Of a stretch of DNA of 64,000 nucleotides, positions 3,001 through 61,878 are shown one piece after another; the first letter of the stretch is position 1; each line of letters starts with the position of its first letter. The notes under the pieces are model-generated. The model saw only the letters and a list, made by a program, of their open reading frames with translations. It ran no database searches and was not told the origin of the DNA. Both the position numbers and the translations under genes were made by a program. Source of the DNA: Lytechinus pictus (lineage: Eukaryota); the NCBI RefSeq assembly GCF_037042905.1, contig NC_087251.1, forward strand, positions 45,138,001 through 45,202,000, written 5' to 3'.

Positions 3001-5149
3001 TCCTCATTCTAACTTCCAATCTGATTTAATGATAATGTTTATCAAATAGGCTGGCGAGGCTCTTTGAAATTAGTTTACTATATGAAGATTTAGAGCATAC
3101 GAGCCTAGATGGTAATCATACCTTTTCGTGCATGGTAGCTGGTCATGCATAATATTTGATGTGATAATATCTCCAATATTATTAACAGGCAAAACGTTCT
3201 CCAATACAGGGATACTGAAATCTCCTTTAATCAAATAAATAACAACCCGAAAAGTTATATATAGGCCTACTAACAATCTGGGAGCCTACAAGTAGACTAT
3301 ACAGTTTTGCCCGAGCATACTTTTTGAAACTACAGTTGTAGAAAAAATATACTGGATTACTGGTATACGAAACATTTTCAAATTGTGTAAACTTCTTTAG
3401 ATACCAGGAGTTTTTCATTTGATCTGTTAAGTCATTGTCATGAAAAAGATGGGATTATGTGTCTGTCCCTATCAGAATAATAGCGTTTTACTTTTATCTT
3501 CGGGGTTTTCTTGAGGTGGGATATAATGAATCGTATTTTGACGTACGCCGTCAGGGCTCGACACACTCCCTGCCCGCCCGCCTGCCGCCCGGTCGGCGTC
3601 CTTGCACTTCACCATTCCGCTACACTGCTCGGAAAATGATGTACAACATTATTCTAACATTCATGAGTCGATAACATGTTTTCTAACAATGCGATACGTA
3701 CCAGTGCTGTTGCATGACCCACGCTCGTTGGTCGTATCCCTGCGGCGGGCAAGCCCCGTTCGCCGAGCCATAGACGTCCGCTAGGCCCGGCCCAAGTTGG
3801 TGGTGTTCGGCATAAGGCATAGTGGCCCACCCGCCATGGTGGGTAGGGGCCGCGGGGACACTATAGGCCTGCGTGGTGAATAACTCCTAATTAACACCAC
3901 AAATCAAACACAAGACACCACAAAATATATCCTCCTTTCCCCTTTTTTTTATCCTTGGCAGTTGGATTACGCAAATATCTACCAATTCGTCGGCGTCCAA
4001 ATGTTCACAAGTGTAGAAGAAAAGGGGGAACACGTAAGCCTAAGAATTCAATCCCGGAAAGGAAAAAGTCATAGTTCCAATTCTTGTCCAGGGATTATTT
4101 GAAGTAGTATTGAAGATGTTGAAATATGATCGCGTAAGTGAATCATAAGAATGGTAATAGGTGATTTTGGCGACAAGTGTTACATTAATACACCCAGTAA
4201 CTCAAGGAACAATACGCGTCACCAAACTTTATTTGAACGTAGGCCTAACCGAAAAAGTAATAATTAAAAAAATAATATTGCCGGCATGCATGGCAGTAGG
4301 ATAGTAGACTCCGTGGTCCCACACATTACTAACTGGCTCGGTGGAAGCCGACCCCAATAAAACTGACCACGGAAATCAATTGAAGTGGACGCTATCTTCT
4401 GTGAAAGTCCATCGATGTCATCCTTCCAACATTGACAAGATAGCCGGCAAAAAGGGAAGAAAAATCATCGGTGCACGCTCGATAACCAATAACCGTGGCA
4501 ACCAAGAATCTAGGGGCACCCCTCTCAGGCTCTCCCTCTCTCTCCTTCTCTCTCCGCCCGTCTCTTTTCTCCCTCTCTCTATTTCTCTCTCCCGCCCTTT
4601 CTCCATATATCCCACTCGTACAATTCGAAAAACCTTTCCTCCTCTCCTCAGTGACAAATGCATTCTCTTTTTCCCCCTTATTATTATTATTTACCACGCA
4701 TTACCCATCCCCTCACCCCTACAGAATTAAATGGTCGAACCCTAAATTAAAGATAAGACTTTGTAATAATTTCTATATTATGTGATTATTGTTTGCATTG
4801 AAAATGTTTCATAGACTCATTAAATTGTGTTTAAGATCGAGAATCTTTTATTATTTTGTTTATTATTCATTACCATAATTCCCTTCACCTTTTTGAGTTC
4901 CATGATTTTTTATTAATACCAATATCCGAGAATATACTGGTAATATAAACACATTAGCGGATCTGAATATTGATATAATCCATTTCAAAGGAAATAAATG
5001 ATTCTGAATTTTTTTCTTTATTCTTTTTCTTTCTCCTATTTTGGTTACATGATTACATTCATTAAATTTTATCAACCTATTTGACTTAATTATCTATTTA
5101 TCTAATTCACATTACATTAATATATTCATCCATATACTTTTATATTTTG

Positions 5150-5378
5150 TTCTCTCTCTCACACACACACACACACACACCCTCTCACATACCCGTGCGC
5201 GCGCTTAAGCTCACACTGATACAATCACACACCCACATCTACCCCCACACACTCACTCTCCCTCTCTGCTCCCCCTCTCCCTCAATTTTATGTTCACTAC
5301 ATTCACCCGCCAACACACTCACACCCACACAATCTCTGTAGTTTATGCCTGGGTTTACACACCCACGGCATTCATTCA

Positions 5379-5413
<35 letters not shown>

Positions 5414-5638
5414 GTACACCCTCACTCTGTAGGTGATTATTCTTGGGTTTATTCACTCATAGTCACCTTTCCACCTCCCCCCTCACACACACACACTCAC
5501 CCACTCTATGTAGATACCCGGTTTGTCATCCACATTCACTCTCTCACACGCAAAGACAAACCCACACACACACACACTTTATCTTTCTCTGCAGTTCCCT
5601 ATACCTGGGCTTACTCATCCACAGTCACCCACCGACCA

Positions 5639-5671
<33 letters not shown>

Positions 5672-5835
5672 TCCCACTCCAGTTGACTATACATCGGTTT
5701 ATTTACCTCCATTCACCCATCCACCATACACACATGCACCACACACACACACACACACTCTCTCTCTCTCTCTCTACCCTTCCAGTTTACTATCAATATT
5801 CACCGACTCTGCATGTACCCCCTCCCCTCTCTTTA
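5150..5835 (+). repeat. (CA)n/(CT)n compound microsatellite region
   Basis: Direct inspection. Confidence 0.9.
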
Positions 5836-6610
5836 TCTGTAATTTACTATAACTGGGTTTATATTTTCATCCCTATCTCTACAGTGTATCTGTTGTGTTT
5901 TATTTGTTTGAATCCATGTTGATAAAACAAGCATGGTATCAAAGTTTAAGTGCATAAAATGAAGAAAAAAAGTAAAAGGAAGAGTAACATGAATGTTACA
6001 TACAGCGCACGCATGCACAAACACATCAAAGTACACTATCCTTGTCATTTGTGTCTGTCTACGACCTTTTTTTGTGTGTGTCATTTGCATGTTTAAAAAA
6101 AAAGATCTTCCCCTTTTCCCTTTTATGTATGTAGTGCACGGTATTTGTCAAAGAGACCTGAACTATATATACATGGCATGTTGACATCGCGGTTTATCAC
6201 GCTAAACATGAACACCTAGGCAACATTGGACGAGCAAAGGTTGAAAAAAAAAAGGATAAAGGGATAAAACGAGAACAATGTTATGCACACATAGATATGA
6301 CGACAGAAGAACATAATACGGAAAGGATCAAGTTCAATACGTTAGATCAGGATATCGGTACGGGTCATAAAAACCCGGTTTTAAACGTTGTAACTTGTGT
6401 AAGCAAGAACAGAGGGGTGTGAGAGGTGGATGGTGGTAGGGTTTTATATAAGAGAAGAAGACAATTTGGTTGAATGAGTTTGCTATAGGCGTGTTGCATG
6501 TCAGTGTCCAAAGCAGCCAAGTCCACCCAAGCGAATGTTCATTCATCGTTCATAAAAAAATTCCCCCCCCCCAAAAAAAAAGAGCAAAATCTGACTAGGC
6601 CTAATAGTGA

Positions 6611-20099: not shown

Positions 20100-20920
20100 T
20101 GCGAACATATTACTAATATCGTTTGTAAAATATCTCGGGCAATAGGTTGTGTAAGGCGGTTTAAGCACTTACTGTCCTTTGATATTATGAAGAAGCTGTA
20201 CTTTTCTATGGTTTTACCTTACATTGATTACTGTATTACATCTTGGGGAAGCAGTGCAAAAATACATTTAGATAAGATACAAAAACTTCAAAATAAATAT
20301 GCCAGAATGCTTTTGAAAAAAATTTATAATACATCACAAATTTCTTTGTTGCAGTCACTGAAGTGGCAATCAGTAGATCAGCGTATAAAATATCAGTATT
20401 GTGTTCTTGTATATAAAATAATGAATGATTTAGTTCCAAATTATTTAAAACCTTTAGTATGTAAACGGCCCGTGAAATACAGGACACGGTATTCTTTACG
20501 ATGCCCCCTTCAGCTTCCCAAAGCTAGAATTGAACATAAAAGAAAATCTTTCGCATATGTCGGACCCAAATTATTTAATGCACTTCCTTCAAATTTACAA
20601 GTTTGTACCTCCTTGTTAGTTTTTAAAAAATGATGCAAAGCCTTTCATACGAATTGATACGAAATGATATTCCTTTGATTTACAATGCTATGTATGTTTA
20701 AATTGTCACTTCCCACTCTATATTTTGCTGTTAATTGTTTCTGATGTTAGATATTTTGTATTTTGTATTTTTGATGTTGTTTGTTGTTGTTGTTCATAGT
20801 TATCTTGACATGTATTTTAAACTGCAGGGCGCCTTTGTAAAGCAGTTTTAAGAACTGAACAGGCCTACCCTGCAGTATAAAATAAATAAAACAAAATAAA
20901 TAAATAAATAATAAATAAAT
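20100..20920 (+). mobile_element. 5'-truncated LINE (CR1/L2/Crack-group) 3' end
   Basis: ORF 20187..20633 (LYFSMVLPYIDYC...WGS...LQKLQNKYAR-like...SFAYVGPKLFNALP) is typical of the region C-terminal to the RT domain of ORF2. It is followed by a 3' UTR and an (AAAT)n tail at 20878-20920. Confidence 0.88.
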
Positions 20921-22137: not shown

Positions 22138-24469
22138 GGAAGTACACAGCCCCCTGTACTATCATAAATCCATGATGTCCGTGCCTGCCTCGCCACCTCT
22201 ATTGGTGAAAATTTTCCCATTTACTGAGATGGTGCACTTAAGTGCCCCTCTCTTCTGCTTCTTTTTTTCTCCTCATGTTCATTTTTTAAATAATATTTTT
22301 GTTTTATTTCTTGAGGTGAGGGGGTTTATTTTTTAACACATCCTACGATCAATAAACTACATAATGGGAATTGGGTATCATACGATCTACATACGATTTC
22401 CGAGGATAATGTTACGGTGATATCTGAGCTAAAAAGCACTATCTCCTTAATACCTTCGTACGATATCTGTACGATCTCTGTGCGGTATCTGTTGGCTTTG
22501 TCTTTGGCCCCACATAATTATGCCATGGACATGAAAGCGTACGGTGAACGTAAACAATGTTAACATAAAAATAGTAGTCCGTAGGCTATATACCTTCGTT
22601 TCCCTCTAAAAATCGTCAAAGTGGAAGTTCACGCTGACATAGGTTTATTGTAAAAATAGCAACAACAAAAAATAATGAAAATATTGCCGAAGGTTCAAGA
22701 AAAATCCATCAAAGAATAAAAAAGCTATAAGAATTTTGATTATTTGATTTGTGACAATTTTAATTACTAGTATCCATCACAAAGTCATGATGACAAATAT
22801 AACTAGTCATGAAAGATAAATTCAGTGTGGTTAGACTCGATCGTATATGCTTCTGTAACTACGACACTAACAGGGGCCACGGAACTGGGGGAGGCATTTG
22901 CCCCCATTTGTTTCCAAAACCGTGTACAAAAACGTAAAATGACTATTGATTGTGAGTTTTTGCATGGCCAGCCACCCCGCCCCCTTCTAAACCGCTAAGC
23001 GGCCCCTTATTGATATCCGGGCAAATAATTTTTTTTGGGGGGGGTGCTTGGAGTGATGATCTTTTTGTTTTTGTCTTGTTGGTGCACGATGTTGCTTGCT
23101 GGTTAGAAAATTTTGAATAAGGCCCTTTTCGCCCCCCCCCCTCCCTTGCTGGTAAATCCAGAATCTGTCGCTGGGTATATTAATGTCGACTGAATCATCA
23201 AACATAATATGGTTTGAATGTTATTTGAGCTAACGAATGTCTAGGTGAAATGTATAGTCTAGGTGATTGGTGAAAAAAATGTTCAGAAAATGGTACAAGC
23301 ATGAAAATCGGCACAAAGGTAGAGTAAGTTATTCTAAACATTTTTAGCAGGGGGTGCCAACGTGAGTTCACCAAACATAGCAACAGTTGCTAGGTAACAT
23401 ATTTACCTTAGTAACTGAGCTTAATTGGGCTTGAGTAACATTTTCATAAGCGATATGTCCTACAAATTTTAATCTAAAGCATGTTCTTTTGTATCACAAC
23501 AGTTTTGATCCATTTATTCATAGCAACGGTTGCTAAGGTACCCTCTTCCGTAGCAACAAATTCTATATCTTAGTTCAGATCATTATAATCTACTCAGAAT
23601 AGCTCAGAAATTAAATCTGGCCCATAGATTCATCATGTGATGAATGTTTCCATAGGTAGACTTAATGAGCACCATAGCAACCGTTGCTAAGTAACATTTT
23701 CCACGGTAACAATTATTATAGGGTATCTTTTTATGATTATATATAATTTCTATTAAAGCATTAATACATTAATCACGACAACCAAAGAACAATGTATACA
23801 AGCCCATGCGAAGTACCAGTTGCTAAGTAATATGTTTTCTGTGGCAACCAATGGTTAAAGGCCGTATGGTAAGATTATTGATGTGTTAATCATATAGGGA
23901 AATAATAGATGCTTAAAAGTTAAACCGTGCACAAATTAAACTACCTCATGATATGGTTCATAGTTCCAAAGACGATGTATATAGGTTCCATATTATTGGT
24001 ATAATAATACTTATTGCATGTTAAAAGAACTTCACCTTTTAACACCAATCTTTATCCATTTGGAAACCATATTATGGATTAACCTAAACATATGTAAAAT
24101 ATCCACCCTTGGAATAATTCCACAATATCAACATTTAGCAAGAGGTCACTCTTGTAGAAGAACGCTTAAGAGAACTCCCCATGAGGTCATGGGTACTTAC
24201 AACCTAAATATCTCTGATCTTGGAGAGATAACCACGAAGAGATGACCACCAAGAATTGACTGAGTCACCTTAGTTTAGAATTATTTCAAACACATAAATC
24301 TTGTCAGAACTTAATTTTCAAATGAGTGATTGGATACCACTTTTTCCCTTGCTAACAGTAGTCGTTCGCTTGAAAGCCAACACACTTTGCCTTGGTTTAC
24401 CCACTCCCTTCCGTAGTCTGCAATGAAGATCATATTAGTTCTCCATGTCGTTCCCAAACCGAATGCCAT

Positions 24470-25500
24470 GGGTAGGAGTTGATTTTGACCAGGCGTTTTG
24501 ACTTAGATCAATCCTTCGCAGCTGCGGGAAAGGTCTGTTAGAATTGATTGGGACCATTCAGTTCCGTTTCCTGGCCTGTTAGCCTGGATCCTGCAGCTAC
24601 ATGATCTATCATGAGTTCTGCAGACGTTGATTTGTACCTGTTACTTCCGATTACAGGTGTTTTGACCTGGAACAATCCTGCAGCTCCATGATCTATCATG
24701 ACGTGAAAGATCCTGCTAGAGATAATTTAGACCCGTCAGATCCGTTTCTATATAGGCATGCTGGCCTGGATCCTGGAGCTAAATGACTTGATCCTGACGA
24801 AGTTGATTTGGACCTGTCCGTCCTTTTTCCAGGTGTTTTGACCCGGAACAATCCTGCAGCTCCAGGACGTGTCATCACGTGAAAGATTTCGCAAAAGTTG
24901 ATTTCCACAAGCCAATTCTGTTTTCAGGCATGGTGGCCTGGATCCTGCAACTCAGGGCTCTATCGTGAGTTGAATGCTTGTGCAGAAGCTGATTTGGACC
25001 TGTCCGTTATTTTTCTAGGTGTTTAGACCTGGATCGATCCTGCAGCTCCAGGACTGAGCATCACTTGAAAGATCTGTTAGATTCGACTTAGACCATCAGT
25101 TCCGTTTCCAGGGGTGTTGGTCTGGATCCTGCAGCTACATGATCCATTGTGACTTCTGTAGAGGTCGATTTGGACCTGTCAGTTCCTATTCCACGTGTTT
25201 TGACCTGGATTAATAATGTAGCTCTGGGATCTATCATGACATGAAAGATCTTGCTAGAGATGATTTTGACATGTCAGTTCCGTTTCTTGGAATGTTGACC
25301 TGGATTCTGCAGCTATATGATTGATCTATCATGGCTCGATCCTGCAGAAGTTGATTTGGACCTGTCCTTTCTGTATCCAGGTGTTTTGACCTGGATCAAT
25401 CCTACAGCTCCAGGATCCATGACTTGAAAGCACGTGCATAAGTTAATTCGACCTGTTAGGTTCAATTGCAGGTATTTTGGCCGGGATCTTGCGCTTCAAG
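24470..25500 (+). repeat. Diverged tandem array, ~90-bp subunits forming ~180-bp dimers
   Basis: CCTGG...ATCCTGCAGCT recurs about every 85-100 bp; GATTTGGACCTGTC recurs about every 175-186 bp. Confidence 0.8.
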
Positions 25501-25553
25501 ATCGATCTTGACTTGGTAGATCTTGCAGGACTATGCACATCTGACTTTGCCAT

Positions 25554-25977
25554 CTACGTATATAAAGTACTCATGATATCAGGTTGGCTCGACGCGATCC
25601 ATACTCGGCCACAGAACATTAGCATGAAGTTCCGATATGCTTCTTCCTTCCATATACATCCGATACTTCTTGGCATGTCCAACTCAGATGGAAATGATTC
25701 TGCTGATGGCACTACCACCTTGTCTCGCAATATAATTTCCTTATGGAGAGAAATGTTTCTTACACTTTGATTGATGAACAAGTAATTGTCCCACCGAAGA
25801 GGATGATGACTGTAACTTTCTTGATATATTCCTCTGTTGCATCTGATATTCTTTGTCGAGCATACTGCATGTTTCACAGTGGTCTTGCTTTCTCGCACTT
25901 ATGATTAACCCAGACAGTCTTAACTTAAATTTTGGACTAAATATATCCCCTACTCTGAGAAGGCATGTGCTACACAT
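25554..25977 (-). pseudogene. Frameshifted coding relic inside the transposon (CxxC motif, possible transposase fragment)
   Basis: Overlapping ORFs 25741..25977 (FSPKFKLRLSGLIISARKQDHCETCSMLDKEYQMQQRNISRKLQSSSSSV) and 25554..25898 look protein-like and lie inside the TIRs. Confidence 0.35.
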
Positions 25978-26499
25978 AAAATGTATGTTCGATTAGTTCG
26001 CTAGAATTCTACCCAAAGTTTTAAGCTATTGGAAACTTACACTGTAAATATAATTGATATATTTTCCTTCATTATCTAGAAACTGTTGCAAAATATCATG
26101 TAAATTATGACTCAAGTGTCCAGCATTATGATCAAATAAAAGAAACACATACAGTGGCAATTGTTCCTAGTAAACTTGGGATTAGAATCATTGTGGTTTT
26201 TTTTTTTTTTTTTTTTAAGATGCTGTAATATAATGGACAAGAATGATAAAAGAAGTCATCTCAAGCTGGTTGGAAAGCTCTGTACCAACACTTTTTCATT
26301 GCTTTCCATTTTCCAGCCATACTTTTTGATGTCTTGGAACAACATACAATATCTTGCATATTACCGCTTCATCTTCATGATAGGATGCGACGTTAATAAT
26401 AAGTGTCAATTACAGAGATAACCATTTCTATTGAAATATGTTGCTGTATAATCGAAAAATGTACTGCTTCGTGACGTATTCACAAGTGGTACATGGATA

Positions 26500-26885
26500 T
26501 GCAGTCGATGCTTGAAGCTGTTTCAGGTCTACTGTCCATGCTATACATTGAACATACAGTCAATGCTGCTTGGGGCTGTTTCAGGTCTACTGTCCATGCT
26601 ATACAGTGAAAATACAGTCAATGCTGCTTGGGGCTGTTTCAGGTCTACTGTACATGCTATACAGTGAACATACAGTCAATGATGCTTGAGGCTGTTTCAG
26701 GTCTACTGTACATGCTATACAGTGAACATACAGTCAATGATGCTTGAGGCTGTTTCAGGTCTACTGTACATGCTATACAGTGAACATACAGTCAATGATG
26801 CTTGGGGCTGTTTCAGGTCTACTGTACATGCTATACAGTGAACATACAGTCAATGATGCTTGAGGCCGTAAGGTCTACTTTACAT
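26500..26885 (+). repeat. 58-bp tandem repeat, ~6.5 near-identical copies
   Basis: GCTGTTTCAGGTCTACTGT at 26517, 26575, 26633, 26691, 26749 and 26807, with a partial copy after. Confidence 0.95.
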
Positions 26886-28732
26886 GCTCTTCAAGTTAGT
26901 CAACAATATCAAACTTACCGACAAGTGTGTGGGCATTAATCGCCATTGCTTCCCAATGATGCTTTGTCATTAGGGAGCGATTAGTTCATACCAATCAAAT
27001 TTCAGCTTCCCTTTGCCCTAAAAGTTTATCTACTACCATACCATGTCTCATTTTCATAACAGGCGAGATCCTATAGAAATGTAATCATAAAATAGTAAGC
27101 ACGTTCAATGACACAGTAATGATTTTTGTTGGTGTGTTAGCTGTGTCATGTATGAATAAATAATATGAAGAAAAAATCAAAATAATCAAACCATGCATAT
27201 CAAAATTAGGTTTGTTACCTAGATACCATTATTATGCAGATATTATATTATTTGAACTACTATGTATTTTTCAGGTTAATGAAATATTTTTTACTCCCAG
27301 GTTTCATACGTTGACCTATTATTTTACCATTTCCATTCAAATATTATGACCAGATGTTGTATATAGTAATATTATCTATAGTTGCTATGGAAAATGTGTT
27401 GCTTAGCAACTGTTCCTGTATATGGTTGGAACGTTGCTTGACTTGTGATTGTAAAATTGGCAGTTCGAAGTCAAAATAAAGTTTTTAGAATGTAGATAAC
27501 ACCCCAAAATGCTGGTTGCTACGGTAAATATGTTACCTAGCAACTGTTGCTATACGAGGACAGATCAGGTTGGCACCCCCTGCTAAAAATGTTCAGCACT
27601 ATTTACTCTACCTGTCAGCCAAATTTCATGCTTGTACCATACTTTGAACAATTCTTGCTAATTTTTGCACGGATCATCCAGACTATATTAGCTCTGTGTG
27701 GTGTAGTAATTGCATAGACCATAAATACATGATGAATTAGTGTCACGTGATTGTCATGTTATCATCAAACTGATTTCATAAAACGTATACGGACTGCGAT
27801 ATAGGCCTATAGGAGTAATGTGACTCAATTAGTAGTTCACGCGAGTCCAATTTTAACTCCACGTTATTGCAAAAGTAGAGACAATAACTGGAATTGGAAT
27901 AGATGGATGATTAAATAAATTGAACTAAACAAACCCTTATAAAAACAGATTTAAATGAAAATATATATTTGATACCAATTTTGATCGAGTGGCAAGGCAA
28001 TATCATCACGTGGTATCTGATTAATGACACGTAATTTTGTCTGTACATAAAATCAGATTTTACTGGTATAGTAGTTTGGATGAGCATGAATTTTTTTTTT
28101 TTTTTTTTTTTTTGGGGGGGGTTGTTAAATGATACAGTGAAATGAAATGGCGTAGATTAAGATTCAATCTTAATTTCTTTGTAAATCAAAATGAAGCACA
28201 TAATAACATAATAATAGGCAACTGAATAAAACTGATAGAAACATAATAACATAACAGATCATGCCGATGCAATTGAATATGAAATTCGAACCAGATAATG
28301 TCAAATTATAAAGGATCGAAATGATGAAGAGGGACAAAAGTAAAGCAGATTCAACCAAAATGTATAATGAACAAATCAAATGAATATAAATGTAAGACAA
28401 TACCTGTCAGAAGTTGGACCAAAACCTACAGTAGGCTTGGGCTATTGGTAGGCCGATGTGTACACGGTACATTCAGTATAATTATTACTGGAAATGCAAG
28501 AATCAAGGAGAAGGCGTTAAACAAGCCAGTCTATAGTAGGCCCTTTAAAAGAATGCACTTGAGCAGAACAAGTTCAAACTACATTACAATCACGACAAAG
28601 GAAGGTATTTTCTTTGGTTGAATAAAAAGGGGAAGGTGCTTTCTCCCACCAAGGAAGCCCCGTTTTATCAGACAGTCACCATGGTAACAGTAGTTATCAG
28701 CCAATCAAAATCGAGGAAAGTTGTTAGATCTG

Positions 28733-30827: not shown

Positions 30828-30938
30828 ATGTATTGCAATCGACTTGTCCGTCCCCCTACCCCCTGGGTCCTGAGACCAGTTCCCCGTACTGGGTCAGCTT
30901 CTCCGGCCATCAGATCACCGATGGTTAATTCCATGGAT
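30828..30938 (+). CDS. Kinase gene coding exon 1 (MYCNRLVRPPTPWVLRPVPRTGSASPAIRSPMVNSMD)
   Basis: ATG at 30828 in a GC-richer block; donor GAT|gtaag, phase 0. An acceptor tttcttttag at 30800 suggests an upstream non-coding exon. Confidence 0.6.
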
Positions 30939-33900
30939 GTAAGCAAATTATATGCAATTGATATGTAAATGAAATAAAATAAGAATGAAATAAAAATAAA
31001 ATGAAGAAATAAGTACCAGACTTATCTCTATGTTGTCTTATCTTAGAGGATGACATTACATTATGATTGAACAATAATGATATAAACTTTTATAAACGAC
31101 ACCATAATTATGAATTGACTGTAAATCAAGATTAATAATAGAACATTTGCAAACAGCAAAGTGATAGATAATTGAATAAATAATTAAAGGAATAGATAAG
31201 TAAATAACAGTTAATGAATAAATCAATCAATCAATAAAAAGTAAATGAATGAATGAAAATAAATAAATAAACAAATAACAACAGAATAAATGAATGAATG
31301 ATTTATTGACGAACGAATAAATAAATAGAAAAAAAATTACATAAATGAATGAATAATCAAATGAATACATGGAGGGAAAATAGACAAATAGATACATGAT
31401 TGAATAAAAAATGATAAATACATAAATAAATGAAAAATAAACAAAGTAAATGAACAATTAAAAAAATAAGATTATAAATGACTAAAAAGAAATGAATAGA
31501 CAATGAAAATAATGTAACTACTTCTCAAGCGTGCAATGTGGTGTAAATTTAGGACACGGCTTCTTATGCATTTTTGGCATACAGTCACTAAATTTGTTTT
31601 TTACAAATGGATAAAAGAAAAAAAAACACCTCAGAGGCCGCTAAATTTGAAATATTGAAAATATTATACATAGGCCTAAAATGGTAGGTTAATAATTAGA
31701 TAATTCACATATTGAATTCACGAATGCTTTCAGTTAGGCTTTTAAATGTCATCAGTGTATTATCTTTAAAAAATAATGATCAATTTTAAATAGGAGCTGT
31801 GTCGGTCTCACCAGGATCCAACTTTTTCCCCATCCACCATCTCTCCCAACACATCAGCTGGCAACATGTCGGGCAAACTGCTTTTGCAGTGCTTGCAACA
31901 ATCCCTGGAGAAACAGCAACTTCAGGAAAAGATTGCTGTACGTCTATTTACAATCTACCATGTAGATTTTACTTACAAGTACTTTTCAATTTTAGGGGAA
32001 AATCCTTCAAAAGAAATAATGATAACATATTTTTAACAAAAAAGGTCTACTGGTATATTTTACAAATAATAGTGGAGAATTCAGCATTGCTTGGTTTTTC
32101 AGATATAGACCTCTATGAAATGAAATAAAAAGTGAAAGAAATATATTGTTAGTGATAGAATTCTTGTTTTATTCTTGACATGTGAAACATAACATTTATT
32201 TCTTTGTTCAAATCACAGAGCCTGGCTTCCCAGCTTGGTGTTGGACCTGATGGAGACAGCGCAGACCTCCTCGCTAAGATCAACTCTCTGGTGACAGAAT
32301 CAGAGGGAAGGAGGCAACAGGCAGAGAAGAAGGCCAAGGCTTTCCAAGATCAGTTCCTGGACTCAAAGAGCGAAGTCCAGATCTTGAAGATGGAACTGGC
32401 AGAGGCCAGAAAGCAGAGAGATGCTGCTTTAAAGAATCTTCAAGTAAATACTTTATTATTTTTTCCCCAATGATTTAACCAGAAGGGATGCAAACTTTTA
32501 CTGGACTCATGCTTTTTGGAAATAATTTCTTTCATATTTTGTTGTGCTGAACAATACCCCAAATTTTCTATTTCATCAAACAATGTAAAAGTTAGAATCT
32601 ATCCAGTGTGAAATTTTGATAGATTTTTTTTTCTATTTCTGTTTTCCAAGGATATGACTTGGGAGCCAGTTGAGAGCTCTTCTCCTGCCGATGGAGCAGC
32701 TACCAGAGGCTCTTGGTAAATGTCGAATAAATTGAAAGAAATACAAATTATCAAAATTCATAATCAAACAAAGGAAAATATGTGTATACATAAAAAAGGA
32801 AATAAGCCCAGGTCACAAACTAATAAATTATATGCAGGGCAAAAAAGGGTAAATTACAGATATAACATAAATGATAATTGTATTATTTTGATAGCTGGCA
32901 GACGTATACCAATTTGTTCGATTAATAAAGGTTACTTAAACAATTAATGTCAAAATCTATTGTCACCTATATAGGTATTCTGGAGACAACCCCCAGCTAC
33001 TGTCTTCAGCACCATTAGACCGTGGAGTAGCACCCACCTCTACACCAGTCACAACACCATACAACCCATCTACACCAGACACAGCACCATACAACCCATC
33101 TACACCAGACACAGCACCATACAACCCATCTACACCAGACACAGCACCATACAACCAGTCAACTCCAGACACAGCACCTTACAACCCGTCAACACCAGAC
33201 ACAGCACCTTACAACCCTTCGACACCAGACACAGCACCATACAACCCACCTACACCAGATACAGCACCCTACAACCCATCGACACCAGACACAGCACCTT
33301 ACAACCCACCTACACCAGATACAGTCCCCATTGACACCATGCCATTACCCCTTGCGTAAGCATTAAGTTAACAATGCTATAAATCGAAATTTTTGTAAAA
33401 ATCAAACCAAACAACAACATAAATCATGTATCATAATTATAATAAATGATAGATCTGCAATAAAAAACATTAAAAGGGTGAAAAACAAACAAACAATTAA
33501 AAAAAAACACTCGCGAAAAATGCCATGTTTCACTTCTGACGCGGCAACTTGAAAATCTTTATTATTACTATTATTTTATTTATTGTGAACAAAAAACAAC
33601 ATGTAACATGGATGGGTTCACAATTTGTCAATTACAGACAACCAACACCTAGCCCCCAGGCCAGTGGTGCTGAAGCAGCAGTTGGTACCCCTCCAACAGT
33701 ACCACTCTCTGCTCAAGCCCCAGTGGTTCACCATCAAACACCAATCACAGCCTCACGGTAAGTAGACAAAAACCTTACGAGTGACAGGACAATATTCAGC
33801 AGCCAACTATATCTATCCGATCACTGTACTGCTGCTTACTTGATTTCTGGTTAAATACAGGTGCACTAAAAAAAACTTATTAAAAAAATGAAGAAAAAAA

Positions 33901-35380
33901 AACAACCAGTGCCCCAATAGTTTTGTGAATAATTTAGGACTTTGAGACTGCAGAGAAATGGATGTGATTTATCCACACCTCCGCTTCGACAGATAAAAAA
34001 TACTTTAATTAAAAAAGTAAAACTATTATGATCATCATTATTATACCATTTTTGTAGACCTACACCAGTGAGCTCAGCTGTTGGTGTTGCCACATCTCCT
34101 TCTAGCGGTTCAACTGCCCCTGCCCTCGTCCCGGCATCTTCTTTCGTCCAGGCAATGGGCGATCTGAAGTCCTTCCTTCCAGGAGGTGGGGACGTCTTCC
34201 TGGGCAGCGGAGTAAACGGAACAGTTCATCTCTTCCGTCATCGTGTGACCAACCATCCCATCGCACTGAAGACATTCGAGCTCCCCAACGATCTTGAGGA
34301 GATGACTACGAAGGTTGGTTCTCTCTTATTAATAAACGCTAAAACGGTTAGAGCTTCGCATTAGACAGTATAAGGCGAGACAATGAAATCTTAAAATACT
34401 CAAAGAACTTGTTTTTATTTGCATTGATTTGCATTTCGATAGGTCAAGGTCATCCAGTCCGAAGCTCTCATCCTCGACGTTCTTGGTAGAGAGGAGTGCT
34501 TCCCGACTTTCCTTGGATGCTTGGAGATAAGCACAGGAACGATTGGCCTTGCGATGGATTTCATCGGGGACACGACTACGGGAGAGACCTGGACACTCAG
34601 CCGTGGCATGAGAGAGTTAGTACTGAGTCAACAAGAGTGGTAAGTTGATGATTTATTCTAACTCTTCATCATAAGGCTTGAACATGTATAAATCTTTATT
34701 TGGATTTTTTCACGTTCCATCACCTGTCTTCTTTTCCTCCGGTCTTTTCTTTTCTTTTAGGTTCAGTCTGGCTCTCGACATTGCCAAGTCACTTGGGGTG
34801 ATTCACGAGAAAGGCTTCTTGATGAACGACCTCAAGGAAGACAACTGCTTGCTTCGAAAGGCTACATCTGGACGATGGCAAGCGGTTATCGTGGACTTTG
34901 GGCTGGCTTGTTCCCGAACCGAACCCTTTTCCTTCTGCTTTTCTACTGATGATAAAGAGAAGTACCGAAGAAAGGTATGTTTAACATGTTGGTCAAATTA
35001 AAAACTTGTCGATACAAATATTTATGGTGCTTTATTGATAATCTTTTCATTTATTCAATGTTTTCTCTCTAATTTGGATGTCAGTAAGTCAAATGATAAT
35101 CGAATGGTTTTAATAAAACAATTATCATGATATGATTTACACTTTTTTTATTTCATATTTACAGGAGATCTATACCCACATTGCCCCAGAATGCGCCCTC
35201 GATGACCATCCGATCTCTGTCTCGAGCGACGTGTTCCAGCTCGGCCGTCTGTTGACCCTGATGGGAGATCGTACGAACACCGCCGATCTCACCGCCATCG
35301 GGAACATCTGTCGGCTTAATACCCACCTCTGCCGACCCACCATCGAAGAGGTCGTCGACGAGATCGAGAGGGTAATGTAG
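30828..35380 (+). CDS. Multi-exon protein kinase gene (coiled coil + Pro/Thr/Tyr decapeptide repeats + C-terminal ePK domain), about 642 aa
   Basis: Ten exons have GT-AG boundaries and phase-consistent joins: 30828-30938, 31794-31937, 32219-32443, 32651-32715, 32975-33355, 33638-33757, 34058-34313, 34443-34639, 34761-34974, 35165-35380. Total 1929 nt = 642 aa + stop. Kinase motifs: LGSGVNGTV, IALK, alphaC Glu (QSEAL), LMNDLKEDN, IVDFG, HIAPE, SDVFQLG, CRPT. Confidence 0.88.
31794..31937 (+). CDS. Kinase gene exon 2 (ELCRSHQD...LEKQQLQEKIA)
   Basis: Acceptor aaatag|, donor GCT|gtacgt; 144 nt, phase 0/0. Confidence 0.75.
32219..32443 (+). CDS. Kinase gene exon 3 (coiled coil, SLASQLGV...RDAALKNLQ)
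   Basis: Acceptor tcacag|, donor CAA|gtaaat; lies within ORF 32204..32473; heptad-like E/K/Q/L pattern. Confidence 0.85.
32651..32715 (+). CDS. Kinase gene exon 4 (DMTWEPVESSSPADGAATRGS)
   Basis: Acceptor tttccaag|, donor TG|gtaaat; phase 0/2 matches both neighbours. Confidence 0.75.
32975..33355 (+). CDS. Kinase gene exon 5 carrying nine YNPSTPDTAP-type repeats
   Basis: Acceptor tatag|, donor GC|gtaag; 381 nt, phase 2/2. The 30-nt tandem units at 33060-33329 are open in this frame. Confidence 0.85.
33638..33757 (+). CDS. Kinase gene exon 6 (Pro/Thr-rich linker)
   Basis: Acceptor ttacag|, donor CG|gtaagt; 120 nt, phase 2/2. Confidence 0.8.
34058..34313 (+). CDS. Kinase gene exon 7 (linker, Gly-loop, VAIK-equivalent IALK)
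   Basis: Acceptor tttgtag|, donor AAG|gttggt; encodes LGSGVNGTVHLFRHRVTNHPIALK. Confidence 0.9.
34443..34639 (+). CDS. Kinase gene exon 8 (subdomains III-V)
   Basis: Acceptor gatag|, donor TG|gtaagt; encodes VKVIQSEALILDVLGREECFPTFLGCLEISTGTIGLAMDFIG... Confidence 0.9.
34761..34974 (+). CDS. Kinase gene exon 9 (subdomains VIa-VII)
   Basis: Acceptor ttcttttag|, donor AAG|gtatgt; encodes IHEKGFLMNDLKEDNCLL...IVDFGLA. Confidence 0.92.
35165..35380 (+). CDS. Kinase gene exon 10 (subdomains VIII-XI, stop)
   Basis: Acceptor ttacag|; encodes EIYTHIAPE...SDVFQLG...CRPTIEEVVDEIERVM*. Confidence 0.92.
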   Translation, partial: EIYTHIAPECALDDHPISVSSDVFQLGRLLTLMGDRTNTADLTAIGNICRLNTHLCRPTIEEVVDEIERVM

Positions 35381-37250
35381 GCACTCACTGCATTTCAAGA
35401 GATATCAAATCATTTCCCAAGTTCACATATTTCAAAATACATTTTAAAAACACATCAAGTTATAAGACATTTGGATTAAAGCTGTATAAAGTATGCTTAT
35501 TTAAATTTCACATTTTATTCAAGACACAGATGCATATTCACAAAATTATGTTGTTTGATTACTCTAATAAATATTATATTCAGATAAGTCATGTTTTCAG
35601 AATTCCTTGAAATCATGAAAATTATATGCTTCTTTTCATCTTGCATCAAACATGCAGTAGTAACACTAAATGGCAAAATGAACGAACAAACAATATGTAA
35701 AATTATAATTAATTCTTTAAAGTGTAAAAAGAGGGTATCACTTCTCACTTTAATTCAACATCTTATTCACAACAAGTTATAAAACGAATATTCGAAAAAT
35801 AATTAAAAGTCTGAAGAAATTTTGAACATGATTACCAAAAAAGACAAACGGTCTATTCTGTGTTTGGTTCTCCCTTTGGGTTCTCCCCTATATTACAAAA
35901 CACATGAATGAATTTTTTTCTGCTCTGAATCATCTCTACGTGCATTATCCAAAGAAAAATTGAATTTTAAAAAGTATGAAAATTGAAAGTTTAACAAAGC
36001 AATTAGCAATGATGTACGTTTCTGATAATTATGAACTTTTTCCACAAAAAAAACCAAACACCTGTACTACAAATTACAAATATGAATTTTGACTAAACAG
36101 TAGAATTTCGCAGGGAAATTGATTTGATATCTTTTAAAATGCAGTGGAAGGTGAGTATTGTAAATATTCTATTGAATACTATTTTACTTTAGAATTCTCA
36201 TAAAGCTGCTCGATATTACAATTATGATTGATATAGCAGATTGGACAATACAAGGTCCCTAGTTGCATACATGTAAAACTTACTATTCGGGTAACATAAT
36301 TATTCATCCAATGGTAACTACTATGCTAGTATTGCTCAACATTTGATTAAAAGCTAGGTTGATCATTGAACATGTGGGGATTACCATTGGATAGCAAATT
36401 AATTTTGAAGCAACCGGGTTCTACCCATAAACCATTGCAGTGATATCAAACTTGCTCGTTCAAACGGAAGAAGTTCTGCAGAATTAAAAAAAAAATCACG
36501 GCTTTAGGAAAAAAAATATTGATTTGATTTGTGATCATTCCATTTCCAGTTCGAGTCGGTCAGGGTAATTTGTATGTAGTCTGCAGCCAAAATATCCTGA
36601 TCGAAACTTTTACCATCATATTTACTCATCAACTTGTTGAAAGTTAGCTTCATACATGTAAATCAAACCAAGAAAGGGGCTTTTACAATGGTATGAAAAT
36701 TCAGGCCACTTTCTTCAAAAGAAATGGTTTACCCAGCAAACTATTAAACGTAAGTATCATATTTCATTGCTAAAGATCAAATCAGCCGATCGAGAACGAT
36801 GATCATCATCTGAATTTCCGTTTCAAAGCAAACTAAATATAATGAAAGACAAAATAGTTCGTTGCAACTTGTAAAATATATACACAAAAATATAATAATA
36901 ATAAACATGAATCGCTTGATGTCTTAGAAAAATGAAACAAGAATTGATATTGAAATGAAACTAACTGAATAAATATTCAGAAGATTTCCATTCACTGTTG
37001 ATTATACGGAGATGGAGCAATCGGTATCGAAACCGAAGGTAGTCCATCACGGTACAGAGCGGGGTGGGGCTCTGTACACAGGGGCGGCGCCCGGTTAATT
37101 TTGATGGGAGGTTGGGGTGTGAGACGACATTATGAAGATGGCTTTTTTTCTCAATTGAATCAAAAGAAACATAGCAATTACTTTTCATTCTCTTCATTTC
37201 CCTTCTATTTCTATTTTTACTCTCCCCCAATTTTCACTACTTGAAAAAAA

Positions 37251-41625: not shown

Positions 41626-42298
41626 TGAAAAAATGATTTCTGACCAGATCAGAGCGGATTGTTGATTCAGAAAGACTGGGATACCCGAGTTGAAATTAGT
41701 TTTACTGCAGTGCCTTGCAGAACTTGCTTCTCGCTGGGATATCGTATTCGTTTAAATGATTTAAAGAAGAGAAGAAATATTAGCCTCAGTCTTAGTAATC
41801 AAATTACTTTGATTTCATCAAATTATGCGACTGATCGTTTTTATTGAAAGATACTCAACTCGACAAAGGCCTACATCAAACTTCGAGATGTATTTCATGT
41901 TGGGTTGAATCCTAATACAAAGTTTACCTCCATTGATCTATCTGCGTGGAAATTGGCTGTTATTTATTGCACATATCTCGCGAATCATTTTCTAAGAACA
42001 CTCTGTTGATTGAGGACCGTCAGAGAGTTTATTTTTATCATCGAATGTTCTTTCGCGATGTTTAGACATCACCTCCGCAGTTACATGGGTGAGCGAGATT
42101 AATTCCAACCGGACATCTCTATTTCGACCATTTCGACTCCATATATATCAAGACCCGGACGAACGTCATATTCGGCGTTCAATCTCTGACCTGTCATTGA
42201 CGGCTGTCAGATTCATTCCGCTCGGCACCTATACCTGATTTTTAGGAGAGCAACGCGTTCACCCAAAACAAGCAAAACGCGTTCACGTTTATAAGGCG

Positions 42299-42741
42299 AT
42301 GCTCGCAGAAACGACCTCGGTTCGCAGGAGAGAGAAACCGCCACAGTTCACAGTCGACCGCCGAGCCATGATCATCGAACGCACCATGCAGCAGCCCCCG
42401 CCGCCAGAGTACGCGACCTTCGTCGAGATGAAACACATGGCGGGAAAAGTGGCTGTTCTCCGGGAGAAAACCTGGGAGCTCTACACCAAACAGATGACCT
42501 TGGAGAAGAGTTTCACCACCACGGGAGATGGTTTCTCGCAGCTGAAGTCCCGAGTGAGTAGCTGCCACTCGGTGAGCGTCAAGCTTAAGAAAGAGAATTG
42601 TGGGATCGAACGTGAGGTGGGTGAACTACGCGGAGGGATGAGAAGTTTGGCAAAGAGAGCCGACACCCTCAACAAACGCCTGGATGAAATCGATCAACTT
42701 ATCCTGATCAGGAAGTCAAGGAATGGCGAAGATTTCAAGAG
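42299..42741 (+). CDS. Orphan coiled-coil protein with PPxY motif, exon 1
   Basis: 148-codon GC-rich ORF in an AT-rich context, with an ATG start, PPPPEY and a heptad-like C-terminal half. A strong donor AG|gtaagg lies at 42741/42742; unspliced, the ORF stops at 42745. Confidence 0.7.
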
Positions 42742-43350
42742 GTAAGGTTTTTAATATTCATCGATATTTTTTTTTTTCGATTCTCGTCGTTTACAAACGT
42801 GACAACCATATTTGATTCCCATTTAAAAAATAATTTTATGCCGATCTACCTTTTGCCACTTTCACAGTTTTTCCCCCTCCAAATCCATGTATACCTGCAT
42901 ATTCCCCCCGATATTGTCTTAACATTGAAAATATTGGAAAGCACAGAACTTTCTCATGAACAATGTATTAATATTTTGTGGAGAGTTGAAACAGGAGGGG
43001 TCACCACTCTACGAAATATAATTTCCATTGTTTACTTAATTTACAAGATCATTATTGATTTAAGCATACTCGGTTTGTAGGATAAAACAATCACTGTCTA
43101 AAAAAAAATCAACAATGGCGTGGTTGCCAAATAACAATAAAACACCAACGTATATAAATATATATCATATTACTCACCATCCTTGCTGATTTCAATATAT
43201 ACAGATTTATTTTTAGTACCTTGCTTTCAAAAGAATCTTGGCTCAACATCTAGTATTTCTTAATCATCTTGTTGTTCAGTATTGTTTTATAATTTTCATC
43301 CTCGGTTATTGTTTGATTGGTCAATGAAACGTGTGATTGTTCTTTGACAG

Positions 43351-46400: not shown

Positions 46401-47301
46401 CTCTTGCACTCGGCTAGGAATATAATATTACCTTTTTTCTGACAGTTGCGTTCCCGATCTTTTTACGCAACCGGAAAATGAAATCATAATCTTAATGACT
46501 GGGTTGAAGTACGAAGTAGGGCACATCTAAAATTAGGTCAACACTTTTCACTTGGCAAGCATCGATCTGGAATTAAATGAAATACGGTGACGAGGCTGAA
46601 ATACTCTGATAGTATGAAATACGATGGTTTATAATGATTATGAGATAATACACCACCGGATCCAGATGCTATATTAGGCGTATTAATAGTAGAAATATCG
46701 AGAGGGCATTTTACAGGAAATAATATATTTAAACATTTAATTTAAATGATGAAGTACTAAATGTCTTGTGGTCATTATGTTGCACGCTTTTCTGACTGAA
46801 CCGAAATTCTTTTTGACAAAATGGTGCAATCGTATATGTGAAGAATATACATGATGATGAGGAAAATGCTTGTATATAGTGTGCAATTGAAATAAAATAT
46901 GATATTGTAGAGTAAATCGTTTCCTTCTGTGACATATTTATTAAAAAATTAGTTGATTTTGGTACAAATAGATATAGATTTGTTCGTGTATAAAAGTTCG
47001 TGTCTGGGGAAGAATTTCATTATAAAAATTGCGATTTTCACCAAGAACTGGCTAATGAAGCCCCTGCCTTGCTTCTGATTGGCTCAGAAAAAAATATCAG
47101 TAAAAGTCGATCACTTTTTGTTTCATGTGCACTCCACCGGTCTGGGAGATAAATACGCAGAATAAAAACTGGGTTTCAGATATAGTAAAAAAAAATAGTG
47201 TATAATATAAAAAATCACAGAGCACTATTATAGTCTCGATGTAAGACTGAGTCATGCATTTTACTTGATACGAATAATAACTTTAAAATTCTGTAATCAG
47301 T

Positions 47302-47617
47302 GGTCCGTATTCTGAAGTCGGGTTTAACTTAACCTCTGGTTTAAAGTTGTGGTTTAAGTATGGGAAGCCAAAAGTATCAAAATTATTTATTAAGTTGTAC
47401 GTTTCTTATATATGTTTACTGTGCTCTTTCCTGATTCATCGATGGTGAAGACAATAATCTGTTTATACTTCTTAGACAATTATGAATGATTTGTGAGCCA
47501 AATGAGCTGAAGTATGATATCTCTACTGTTAGTGATTCATGTAACAATTGGCTCTCCATACTTAAACCACAACTTTAAACCTGAGTTTAAGTTAAACCTG
47601 ACTTCAGAATACGGGCC
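47302..47617. mobile_element. Harbinger-like MITE (GGCCCGTATTCTGAAGTC TIR), AGT flanks
   Basis: TIRs of ~30 bp; AGT on both sides; a second copy lies at 61879-62189. Confidence 0.85.
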
Positions 47618-49295
47618 AGTGAATTTTTCATTTAATGTAATTTTTCATCTCACTGTAACGTATCTCACGAATTCTATTTATATAGAGTGGGGCTGAAAGA
47701 CAGAGATGACGAGGAAAGGAGGTTGGAAAGTAGAAAGAAAGGGGAGAGAGAGAGACGGGAATGGAGGGATGGAGACGGGGAGAGAGATAAAAGGAAGGGA
47801 GAAAGTGATAAAGAGAGAGAGAGAGAGAGGGGGGGGGGGGTGAGGTTCGGTGTATCTTTGTTCACTACCAAAACTTTTGCGGGGCGCACAGCACGGCGAG
47901 TGCGGCAAAATTTCTTAAAAGTCCCGAGTGAGTGAATCGAGTGAGGAAAAATTTGACCTTTATAAAGTGAAAATTTAATTTTGTGATAGATTTTGACATG
48001 ACAAATAACATCATATCTTGCCCTTTTCCTTTTCTTACTTTTTTTCTTCCCTTTCTTGGTCTTGGAACCTATTGAGGGGGCATCCCCCCCCCCCAAGCCC
48101 CCATATGTCATAGTGTTTGTTGGTTATGATAGCGACAGCTCTTTTCGTCGTGATCACTGGAATATATTCTCAGAAGTCTAATTCGTTGAATTTTTTTTAT
48201 TTTGTGAATGTAGGAACTGTTATAAAGTCTATATTGCAATTATCGATTTGTGATGGAAAGGTAAGAAAATCGAAAGAAAACCCAATATTTTTCTTACCAT
48301 TCCCTCTATGACCCCCCAACCAGCTTGAATTATATATATATATATATATAGATCGAATGCCTGAATTTAGTTTCTATACATTTATTTATATCAGTAGGAA
48401 GTATAATTTGACCAAACACTAATCAATTCAAGGCTTTTAACGTCAAGAAATTTGAGAAGTTTGACGTGTGTCTAGAAGGTCAACATTAAATCAGATACAA
48501 GGAAAAAGGGAAGGAAAAATGTTGGAGACGGGACTTCCATGTATATTTTCTTTAAAAATGACCTAATAATAATCATAAAAAGTCATTGCGATGGTAAAGG
48601 TCAACTTCTCCCAGCAAAATGTTGATTTGAATAAATAGATGATGGATTTTATTTTTAGTTATTCCAATTCTCATTTTAATTCCATGCAAAGAGGTCATGA
48701 TTAGCAAGGATTAGTAAACGTAAAATGGGAAGGGGGGTCCTGCATTTTTTTCAGCGTTCTTGGAGTTATATGACATGGCATGATCTAAGTTATAAGATGC
48801 AATCACCTTGAACATGCGGAAGCTGAGTATCCGCCATGTATGTTTCAAAAATAAGGGGAAAAAAGTCAAAGCATCCCCCAGAAAAACAAGACAAACTAGA
48901 GACTATTCTCTCCTCTCCCTCCCATCCTACCCCCCCCCCCCCCTTTCTCTGCTCCATGCTCGGCTGTGCTATGATCATAGAGGTGAATTTATCCATCAGC
49001 TCTATGGCTATCCGTTCTGATTGCATCTTTGATAGCTCGCAGCTACATTGAACATGTTTAATTTGGTCAAACTATTTTTAATCAATCCACCCCCCTGTAA
49101 TTTTCTTCTGTGCATAAACCCCCAAAATTGAATCTTTCCTTTAACATATTGGACCAACCATACCTGGGTTCAAGGTTCTTTTATACCGTGAATGACAGGG
49201 GACAGAGGAGAGGGTAAGAAGGGGGTATGATACCGAAGTAGGAGAAGAAAAAGACAGGTGCATGATGATCTCCAATGAGGTTATACAGGTAAAGA

Positions 49296-61492: not shown

Positions 61493-61878
61493 CTGCATCA
61501 AAAACATGGTAGAGTGAAATGAAAGCAATTTTATTATTTCATTCATTATTATTCATATTGGTACATTAGCAATTGATTTATGCATTTAATCTCATTCATT
61601 CAAGCAGCTGCTAGTTCGTAGAGCTCATGACTAAAATGAAAATTATTTGATAATTAGATTTTTGAAAAAATGATAAAAGGGAATAGTGACACATTGGAAG
61701 TTGTTTTTTTGTTTTTTCCCAGCACAGTATTGATACATAAGAAAATGATTTTAGATATAATCTCATTCAAGCAAATAATAGTTAATATTGCTCAAGACTA
61801 AAATTACAATACTTTTTAAATTTGCTAGCCTTAATCCATTGGGCCTTAGGCCTGATAACACTAGAGCTGTGATCTATA

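Follow-up and report, generated by a model that had tools for sequence, protein, structure and literature searches.

Non-RD kinases such as IRAK/Pelle and RIPK act in innate immunity, and members of the ROCK/MRCK/DMPK group, like the coiled-coil-bearing FES/FER, dimerise by a parallel coiled coil. The proline-directed kinases of the host, MAPK and CDK, have a consensus that P-x-T-P sites fit. Kinase genes also travel with mobile DNA, the fungal IS3EU elements bearing alpha-kinase genes (PMC12730594). Here we describe a kinase gene found in a 64,000-nucleotide stretch of the sea urchin Lytechinus pictus (the window). Its product is a member of a widespread and apparently unnamed non-RD family of marine invertebrates (referred to here as xND). 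The explanation we favour, and consider probable though by a modest measure, is that it is a dimeric, tethered Ser/Thr kinase of this family and that proline-directed kinases of the host write its TP repeats.

All ten exons lie on the forward (+) strand. Exon 1 (30828..30938, aa 1-37) encodes an N-terminus rich in Pro and Arg and holds the probable start codon, exon 2 (31794..31937, aa 38-85) contains Met62 (31866), the RefSeq start, and the first coiled-coil helix, and exon 3 (32219..32443, aa 86-160) the main coiled-coil segment, predicted to form a parallel in-register dimer. A low-complexity linker begins in exon 4 (32651..32715), carries the repeats in exon 5 (32975..33355), continues as Pro/Thr/Ala-rich sequence in exon 6 (33638..33757) and ends in exon 7 (34058..34313), where the kinase starts at Met382 (34155) and its Gly-rich loop and beta3 Lys420 are found. 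Exon 8 (34443..34639) supplies alphaC Glu441, the hinge and alphaD; exon 9 (34761..34974) the catalytic loop M521-N522-D523-L-K525-x-x-N528, the DFG at 545 and an activation-segment helix; and exon 10 (35165..35380) the APE (Glu580), alphaF Asp593, a shortened C-lobe, Arg628 and the stop codon. The resulting layout is coiled coil (aa 62-162), linker (aa 161-382) and kinase (aa 382-642), and no second copy of the gene was found within the 64-kb window. The initial annotation had proposed an intact ten-exon frame of 642 residues, and this is borne out: the introns are GT-AG in 9/9 cases, the spliced frame of 1929 nt gives 642 aa plus a stop, and RefSeq XP_063957593.1 (Lytechinus pictus) equals residues 62-642 at 581/581 positions, so that the RefSeq model must have the same junctions across exons 2-10. 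That record is without exon 1 and the first 61 aa. As exon 1 is kept in S. purpuratus XP_011683352.1 (P0014; 54% over 39 aa, E 7e-5), where Leu occupies the position equivalent to Met62, an upstream start is plausible. Judged on its sequence, the gene appears to be a genuine sea-urchin protein kinase gene, correctly modelled, and the RefSeq label "mucin-1-like" is a misnomer.

The catalytic residues are all present (K420, E441, D523, N528, D545, E580). Among family rows, the Lys is kept in 141/156, the alphaC Glu in 145/156, the catalytic Asp in 153/156, the Asn in 156/156, the DFG Asp in 154/156 and the APE Glu in 150/156, several of the misses being gaps in partial proteins. The RD arginine occurs in 1/156 rows and Asn in 131/156; here Asn522, rather than Arg, precedes the catalytic Asp, which removes the protein from the RD class. 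HRD thus reads MND, and the Met, which replaces the conserved His in 20/156 rows, could reduce activity. This substitution, together with the name "mucin-1-like", is what might be said for a dead kinase, for two halves that are separate genes, or for a mucin-like glycoprotein in spirit. We consider all of these extremely improbable, since every catalytic residue is kept, four urchin species have gene models in which coiled coil and kinase are likewise joined, and simple hydropathy gives no signal or membrane segment. Indeed, by this simple measure no hydrophobic segment was found at all, the top 19-residue hydropathy (1.38) lying within the kinase and the N-terminus scoring ~0.

The domain had initially been called atypical, a description that does not hold, as the fold is that of an ordinary, bilobal eukaryotic protein kinase (ePK) with Z ~24 (Foldseek TM ~0.7; VIA Z 24.6, rmsd 2.4, 226 aligned) and not RIO, alpha or PIKK. 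Six close paralogs matched Pfam Pkinase and PK_Tyr_Ser-Thr, with Pkinase above cut-off on those 90% identical (E ~1e-14), and none of the six matched an atypical kinase (RIO, alpha, ABC1, PIKK) at E up to 0.5. The nearest solved structures are the tyrosine kinases FES, SYK and JAK2, effectively tied (Z ~24, rmsd 2.1-2.5, ~225 aligned, 20-22% identity), and no solved relative exceeds 22% identity. A single-sequence search of solved structures gave no match, and the best solved match of the kinase profile (E 4e-13) spans profile positions 15-173 only. Membership of the tyrosine-kinase class was rejected, the loop reading DLKEDN instead of DLAARN/DLRAAN and His, not Trp, standing two before the APE. 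The GT motif of Ser/Thr kinases before the APE is likewise absent, so that the specificity call is left to Lys525 as its single residue, and from sequence the enzyme is probably intracellular, active, and of Ser/Thr or dual specificity. From the alphaF Asp to the alphaH-alphaI Arg the span is 36 residues here and in the family median (n=145), as against 62-73 in five canonical kinases. With three C-terminal helices in the AlphaFold model (pLDDT 88.9), the C-lobe is ~30 residues shorter than canonical and probably missing helix alphaG, and a kinase of that kind poses a clear structural question about how substrates dock.

The absence of a fitting canonical metazoan family, noted at the outset, is in keeping with our careful tree of 59 hand-picked rows (no mixture model, a few rows imperfectly trimmed), all gathered with one and the same profile. 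In it, 51 xND rows stand apart from 8 canonical kinase rows with support 100/98, the 8 having come from search results and forming a small outgroup with no curated set of named families. A FastTree version took in 163 of 175 domains, 12 near-duplicates being dropped. Members share the xND loop, the short alphaF-to-Arg span, a full-length profile match and a place in one clade, and at 50% clustering the family counts at least 54 representatives (urchin-profile E no higher than 1e-30). The expression "lineage-specific kinase", used in the initial annotation, has to be given up, because members occur in the urchin Diadema, the sea stars Asterias, Patiria and Acanthaster, Lingula and the coral Oculina, besides Lytechinus and S. 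purpuratus. The urchin sequences form a clade of their own (99/92), separate from a coral-type clade. RefSeq paralogs (XP_054764818.2, XP_041453603.1, XP_041485923.1, XP_030855840.1, XP_072169495.1) have coiled coil, linker and kinase in common, are 51-94% identical to the L. pictus kinase domain, and bear, as do other family members, automatic names that are inconsistent and misleading. Protein records place L. pictus paralogs on contigs of 49.7, 70.6, 57.5 and 26.3 Mb, and the gene is a Lytechinus pictus host gene, one among several dispersed paralogs; the arrangement of coiled coil, Pro/Ser/Thr linker and kinase reaches back to Diadema. In the Atlas search, the kinase found its top match, whether ranked on features (0.99) or on structure (TM 0.85), in a cnidarian-rich cluster that has no name, and the N-terminus yielded leads only (all <0.9). 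A viral origin gained no support: among viral contigs the urchin profile recovered 0 loci and a broad profile 6, all weak and partial, and identity to viral structures by fold was at most 19%. No description of the family was found in the literature covered, most subscription papers, including that on the sea urchin kinome, falling outside this coverage, and a search by six locus ids of RefSeq members found no paper.

That the coiled coil may oligomerise the protein had been suggested earlier, and modelling of the N-terminal segment supports self-association. The homodimer model scored 0.52 versus 0.01 for the best of 3 controls, against a mark passed by 21/30 solved homodimers and 0/23 single chains of microbes, by 17/29 and 0/30 of eukaryotes, and by 7/16 animal homodimers (1/7 without an older solved relative); its runs agreed in at least 88% of contacts, with pLDDT of at least 78. 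Coiled-coil dimers belong to the textbook repertoire, so this pass may reflect generic likeness, and a crude heptad score adds weak support, 26/72 long family N-termini being coiled-coil-like versus 9.2 in shuffles. The model thus supports the N-terminal ~100 aa as a predicted parallel coiled-coil dimer. The linker that follows (aa 161-382) is 50% Pro/Ser/Thr, with 18 S/T-P sites, 8 of the form P-x-S/T-P, and has 3 basic and 17 acidic residues.

Within the linker lies the repeat array (33060..33329 (+), aa 211-300), nine 30-bp units encoding YNxxTPDTxP. Nine YNPSTPDTAP repeats had been reported at first; the number stands, though only 6 units are exact and 3 are variants. The same repeats had been counted as part of the kinase architecture, from which they must be removed: four Lytechinus genes have 6-9 copies, S. 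purpuratus has 0-2 and Diadema 0, so the array appears to be a recent amplification in Lytechinus only. Close paralogs differ in repeat number and sequence, a point against the reading we favour. Elsewhere in the family, unrelated repeats are found in the same region (a 21-aa coiled-coil repeat in P0019, one of ~105 aa in P0027). The repeats could be a mere spacer: a minisatellite within the coding sequence, making a disordered linker longer, constrained in its composition and conveying no specific phospho-signal. This is a possibility we find doubtful, although it would accommodate a copy number of 0-9 across the urchin clade, the unrelated repeats of other members, and the identity of units 1-3 at the DNA level. 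What it would not lead one to expect is that 9/9 units, though variable at third positions, agree without exception in Tyr, Asn, Thr-Pro, Asp, Thr and the final Pro, or that TPxTAP is present 2-4 times in S. purpuratus paralogs. Non-synonymous changes make up just 3/12 distinct variants, against a 73% share of non-synonymous sites (p=0.0007, counting non-independent repeat variants as independent), and the peptide appears to be under purifying selection. A mimic of the RNA polymerase II CTD or of the Spt5 C-terminal repeats (Y-x-P-x-S/T-P), docking transcription or RNA-processing factors, is very unlikely. The Y1-P3-T5-P6 spacing is that of the CTD heptad, we take the unit to resemble the Spt5 repeats, and coral-type N-termini are very basic, suggestive of the nucleus; yet the period is 10 rather than 7, the L. 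pictus protein is without a basic tract, none of 147 other family matches contains Y-x-P-x-x-P more than once, and a literature search for the motif together with Spt5 gave nothing. Since the P-x-T-P sites fit the MAPK/CDK consensus, other kinases most likely write the repeat, to go by its sequence, and it would be a strip for multi-site input or docking rather than the kinase's own dedicated substrate.

Six bp past the kinase stop begins a 761-bp stretch (35386..36146, no strand assigned) with 33-nt inverted repeats that are 88% complementary, a CACTG start and a CAGTG end. It folds with z -2.5 (20 shuffles), shows no target-site duplication by eye, and may be a non-autonomous element situated within the 3' UTR or past it, the kinase gene lying outside its inverted repeats. 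In the window, neither inverted repeats enclosing the kinase gene nor a transposase or shared element genes near it were found, and the L. pictus copy was on these grounds rejected as DNA-transposon cargo.

The coral-type relatives, for which 43 of 63 metagenome loci were accepted as family loci, present another picture. They fall within the xND family, clustering with an Oculina protein (96/94), are intronless and largely single-ORF, and recur near CACTA/Mutator transposases, THAP and Ulp1 genes, a resemblance to transposon cargo that we regard as a new lead. A catalytic transposase domain at Pfam strength adjoins 3/43 loci, a raw count with no background rate: Transposase_21 at L043 (E 5.6e-20), a Mutator transposase at L051 (E 4.6e-22) and DDE_Tnp_4 (6e-10) with THAP (5e-11) and Ulp1 (3.5e-4) at L046; L031 has a THAP neighbour (E 1e-5). 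One unnamed C2H2-finger partner gene is common to 14/43 loci and a weakly RAG1-like segment (Pfam E 0.005) to 4/43, the latter an unconfirmed assignment that matched no solved structure, and in at least 8/43 the kinase is broken over several ORFs, as expected of decaying copies. Such observations would suit the proposal that large DNA transposons carry xND kinases and exchange them, as a means of modifying proteins of the host or of the element, for instance to blunt silencing, and that the urchin genes descend from such cargo and spread, together with their introns, from one chromosome to another by moves at the DNA level; the IS3EU alpha-kinase genes are a precedent for a kinase as cargo (PMC12730594). 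We think this unlikely. Beyond the kinase, none of 1700 ORFs (0/1700) of the retrieved loci has a match in the window, no inverted repeats surround the L. pictus gene, and the urchin clade stands apart, with 10 exons and a layout unchanged from Diadema to Lytechinus. Six coral-type loci scanned gave no convincing termini or target-site duplications (their contigs are short), 21/43 are <4 kb, and L036 and L040 are called CACTA-like on the strength of a weak resemblance to L043 (E 3e-4); compared directly, the L036 exon and the L043 transposase showed no significant similarity. Term counts in PMC4411706 and PMC6431247 gave no mention of kinases; kinases of this sort may already be listed in Repbase or in supplementary transposon catalogues. 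If the coral-type members are cargo, canonical-fold protein kinases are carried by animal transposons, and elements would have a testable route for manipulating host silencing and seeding new signalling genes. A composite, in which an undescribed non-RD kinase family without alphaG is accessory cargo of several DNA-transposon superfamilies in corals, was domesticated and expanded in echinoderms, and in Lytechinus gained a selected tandem Tyr/Thr-Pro strip through which MAPK/CDK signals of the host tune a dimeric kinase, seems to us decidedly unlikely.

In the dimeric, tethered kinase that we prefer, two kinase domains would hang off the coiled-coil dimer via acidic, disordered tethers of 220 aa. 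Because the RD arginine is missing, switching would not be expected to go through activation-loop phosphorylation, and control may instead come from dimerisation, location or the state of the tether. The family's extra activation-segment helix may stand in for the lost alphaG docking surface, and the repeat would be an older TPxTAP unit of one to three copies, amplified in Lytechinus. Both L. pictus and L. variegatus lend themselves to experiment, so knock-out and phosphoproteomics are feasible.

Set beside known systems, the protein belongs in the ePK superfamily, with TK/TKL/STE nearest, and shares its bilobal fold, Gly loop, Lys-Glu pair, DxKxxN, DFG and APE; it differs in the xND loop, a long helical activation segment and a C-lobe ~30 residues shorter. 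Its nearest ePKs are MINK1/TNIK/MAP4K4 by sequence and FES, SYK and JAK2 by structure. Assignment to STE20 GCK-IV (MINK1/TNIK/MAP4K4) was rejected, the kinase being C-terminal here, without a CNH, and the match covering only the N-lobe to the DFG. With IRAK/Pelle and RIPK it shares the lack of Arg before the catalytic Asp, and the family is expanded in an immune-gene-rich animal, but it has no receptor domain, and none of the searches brought it specifically closer to IRAK or RIPK; exons and paralogs gave no death, CARD or RHIM Pfam match, and this assignment too was rejected. The likeness to IS3EU alpha-kinases is that the coral-type gene recurs beside transposases of several superfamilies, whereas the kinase superfamily and the host kingdom are different, the six coral-type loci scanned gave no convincing element ends and the urchin copy has no transposase neighbour. 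With ROCK/MRCK/DMPK and FES/FER it would share dimerisation by a parallel coiled coil, modelled here; in contrast to theirs, this coiled coil is N-terminal, short and separated from the kinase by a 220-aa disordered linker, in a protein with no F-BAR, SH2, PH or C1 domain and no family-level sequence affinity to either group.

The ten exons at 30828..35380 of the window splice, through nine introns that are all GT-AG, into a 642-aa open frame, whose residues 62-642 are exactly identical to the Lytechinus pictus protein XP_063957593.1 ("mucin-1-like"), and the architecture given in the initial annotation, a coiled coil, repeats, a linker and a C-terminal kinase, is right. Sea-urchin proteins were matched by the exon 9 query, and the longer model is probably better than that of RefSeq, since exon 1 is kept in a S. 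purpuratus model, which likewise starts there and has Leu at the position of Met62. The gene is real, the fold is known and the kinase family is apparently unnamed. The catalytic residues are complete (K420, E441, D523, K525, N528, D545, E580, D593 and R628), with MND in place of the HRD motif, and the AlphaFold model has an ordinary kinase fold (pLDDT 88.9, pTM 0.86). Tyrosine kinases are the nearest solved structures by fold (effectively tied, Z about 24), but at just 20-22% identity, while likeness to the best solved match by sequence, MINK1 (E 4e-13), is confined to the N-lobe up to DFG. Distinctive features are a 36-residue activation segment containing a helix and a span of 36 residues from the alphaF Asp to the alphaH-alphaI Arg, versus 62-73 in five canonical kinases, a shortening that suggests loss of alphaG from the C-lobe. 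Non-RD kinases have been linked to immunity.

When 1.84 billion representatives were searched with a profile, 150 matches were listed, 54 of them at E <= 1e-30, and most family matches have an HND or xND catalytic loop. Members identified by name belong to Lytechinus, Strongylocentrotus, Diadema, Asterias, Patiria, Acanthaster, Lingula and Oculina, a minimum range, as names were looked up for 10 of the 147 new matches in one listing. The kinase is old and widespread, not lineage-specific as first proposed. Catalytic columns are conserved over 156 family rows, the RD arginine occurring in one. In a 59-row tree, 51 family rows separate from eight canonical kinases (support 100/98), although the outgroup is small, leaving some chance of membership in a named family; the gene lies within a 15-row clade (99/92) whose named members are urchins only. 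As a rule, members combine an N-terminus that is coiled, basic or rich in Pro/Ser/Thr with a kinase at the C-terminus, and a Pfam scan of 60 long members found extra domains nearly absent. Two proteins, P0012 and P0030, join the kinase to an unrelated enzyme-like N-terminus and to PDS5, respectively, and are probably mis-joined gene models. In the subclade of another relative, P0056, the catalytic loop is tyrosine-kinase-like, with Ala replacing Lys (5 of 156 rows), and substrate specificity may therefore vary within the family. Neither the family as such nor any of six of its loci turned up in the literature searched, subscription papers and supplements being beyond reach.

The repeat array (33060-33329) comprises nine 30-bp units encoding YNPSTPDTAP-type decapeptides. 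Nine of its 12 distinct variants are third-position and three residue-changing, although non-synonymous sites make up 73% of the total (p=0.0007, treating as independent variants that are not), a paucity which argues that the peptide matters and is under selection. Four Lytechinus genes have 6-9 units and S. purpuratus genes 0-2 full units with 2-4 TPxTAP cores, while Diadema and one more distant L. pictus paralog have none; the array arose by recent amplification of a motif that is older. The repeats noted at the outset are present and selected, but as a genus-level ornament and not as a conserved part of the kinase design. With eight P-x-S/T-P sites that conform to the MAPK/CDK consensus, host proline-directed kinases are the likelier writers, and no sign of proline-directed specificity was seen in the window kinase itself. 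The repeat bears some likeness to those of Spt5.

Residues 62-162, the coiled coil, are conserved among urchin paralogs, their final portion also in Diadema. The two-copy model is a parallel in-register dimer with 3-4 contact spacing, scoring 0.52 versus 0.01 for the best of three controls (contact agreement at least 88%, pLDDT at least 78), and clears a pass mark that 21 of 30 homodimers from microbes and 17 of 29 from eukaryotes (one of seven lacking an older solved relative) also attain, as against none of 23 and 30 single chains, respectively. This prediction supports self-binding and backs the proposed oligomerisation, although coiled coils may pass through generic likeness.

The kinase gene is single-copy within the 64-kb window, where no inverted repeats enclosing it were found and a comparison with 1700 ORFs of related loci gave zero matches outside the kinase; L. 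pictus paralogs are spread over four contigs of different lengths, which indicates that intron-bearing copies were dispersed as DNA. Directly past the stop codon, 33-nt inverted repeats with CACTG-type ends surround 695 nt (35386-36146, 761 bp in total), a stretch that excludes the kinase gene and is possibly a non-autonomous CACTA-type element or a 3' UTR stem. Elsewhere, 142-nt inverted arms (82%) about 4.1 kb apart (23274-27656) hold a 176-bp tandem array (24558-25417) and a 58-bp minisatellite (26507-26888), and a palindromic MITE-like 340-bp repeat has two copies 88% identical (47297-47642 and 61879-62216). Other ORFs noted are one of 168 aa, coiled-coil-like, with sub-threshold Pfam matches only and a likely splice donor at its end (42239-42742, +); an acidic one of 460 aa running past the window edge (62619-63998, -) and another downstream of it (61144-61497, -), both without significant Pfam matches; and one of 177 aa without a Pfam match (20100-20630, +), which looks like what is left of the C-terminus of a LINE reverse transcriptase.

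Of greatest interest is a pattern seen beyond the window, the repeated occurrence of family members next to transposases. A metagenome scan gave 63 loci, 43 of them with family members by profile score, mostly intronless and with basic N-termini; of the eight included in the tree, seven cluster with the Oculina protein (96/94) and the remaining one, from L038, falls elsewhere in the family. These coral-type kinases look like cargo common to several element superfamilies. Among 92 of at least 170 listed neighbouring ORFs scanned in Pfam were a CACTA Transposase_21 (locus L043), a Mutator transposase (L051), THAP, DDE_Tnp_4 and Ulp1 (L046) and THAP (L031), with SAM and C2H2 genes and a multi-exon gene of weak CACTA likeness at L036 and L040. 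Kinases are broken at no fewer than 8 of the 43 loci, and a segment with weak RAG1 likeness occurs at four. An unnamed two-exon partner gene, with a C2H2 finger and a 165-aa domain without a Pfam match, usually head to head with the kinase, recurs at 14 of 43 (among them L026:7740-9058 and L016, L018, L020, L028, L031, L034, L035, L037, L042, L046, L047 and L052). One 10-kb contig, L016, carries two broken kinase copies in opposite orientations (981-2294 and 4889-6033). Against the cargo reading, element ends were not found at the six loci scanned, contigs are short, and the urchin clade is separate from the coral-type kinases. As shared cargo, the latter would resemble the TET/JBP and alpha-kinase genes of fungi, likewise reported as shared among element superfamilies (PMC12730594).
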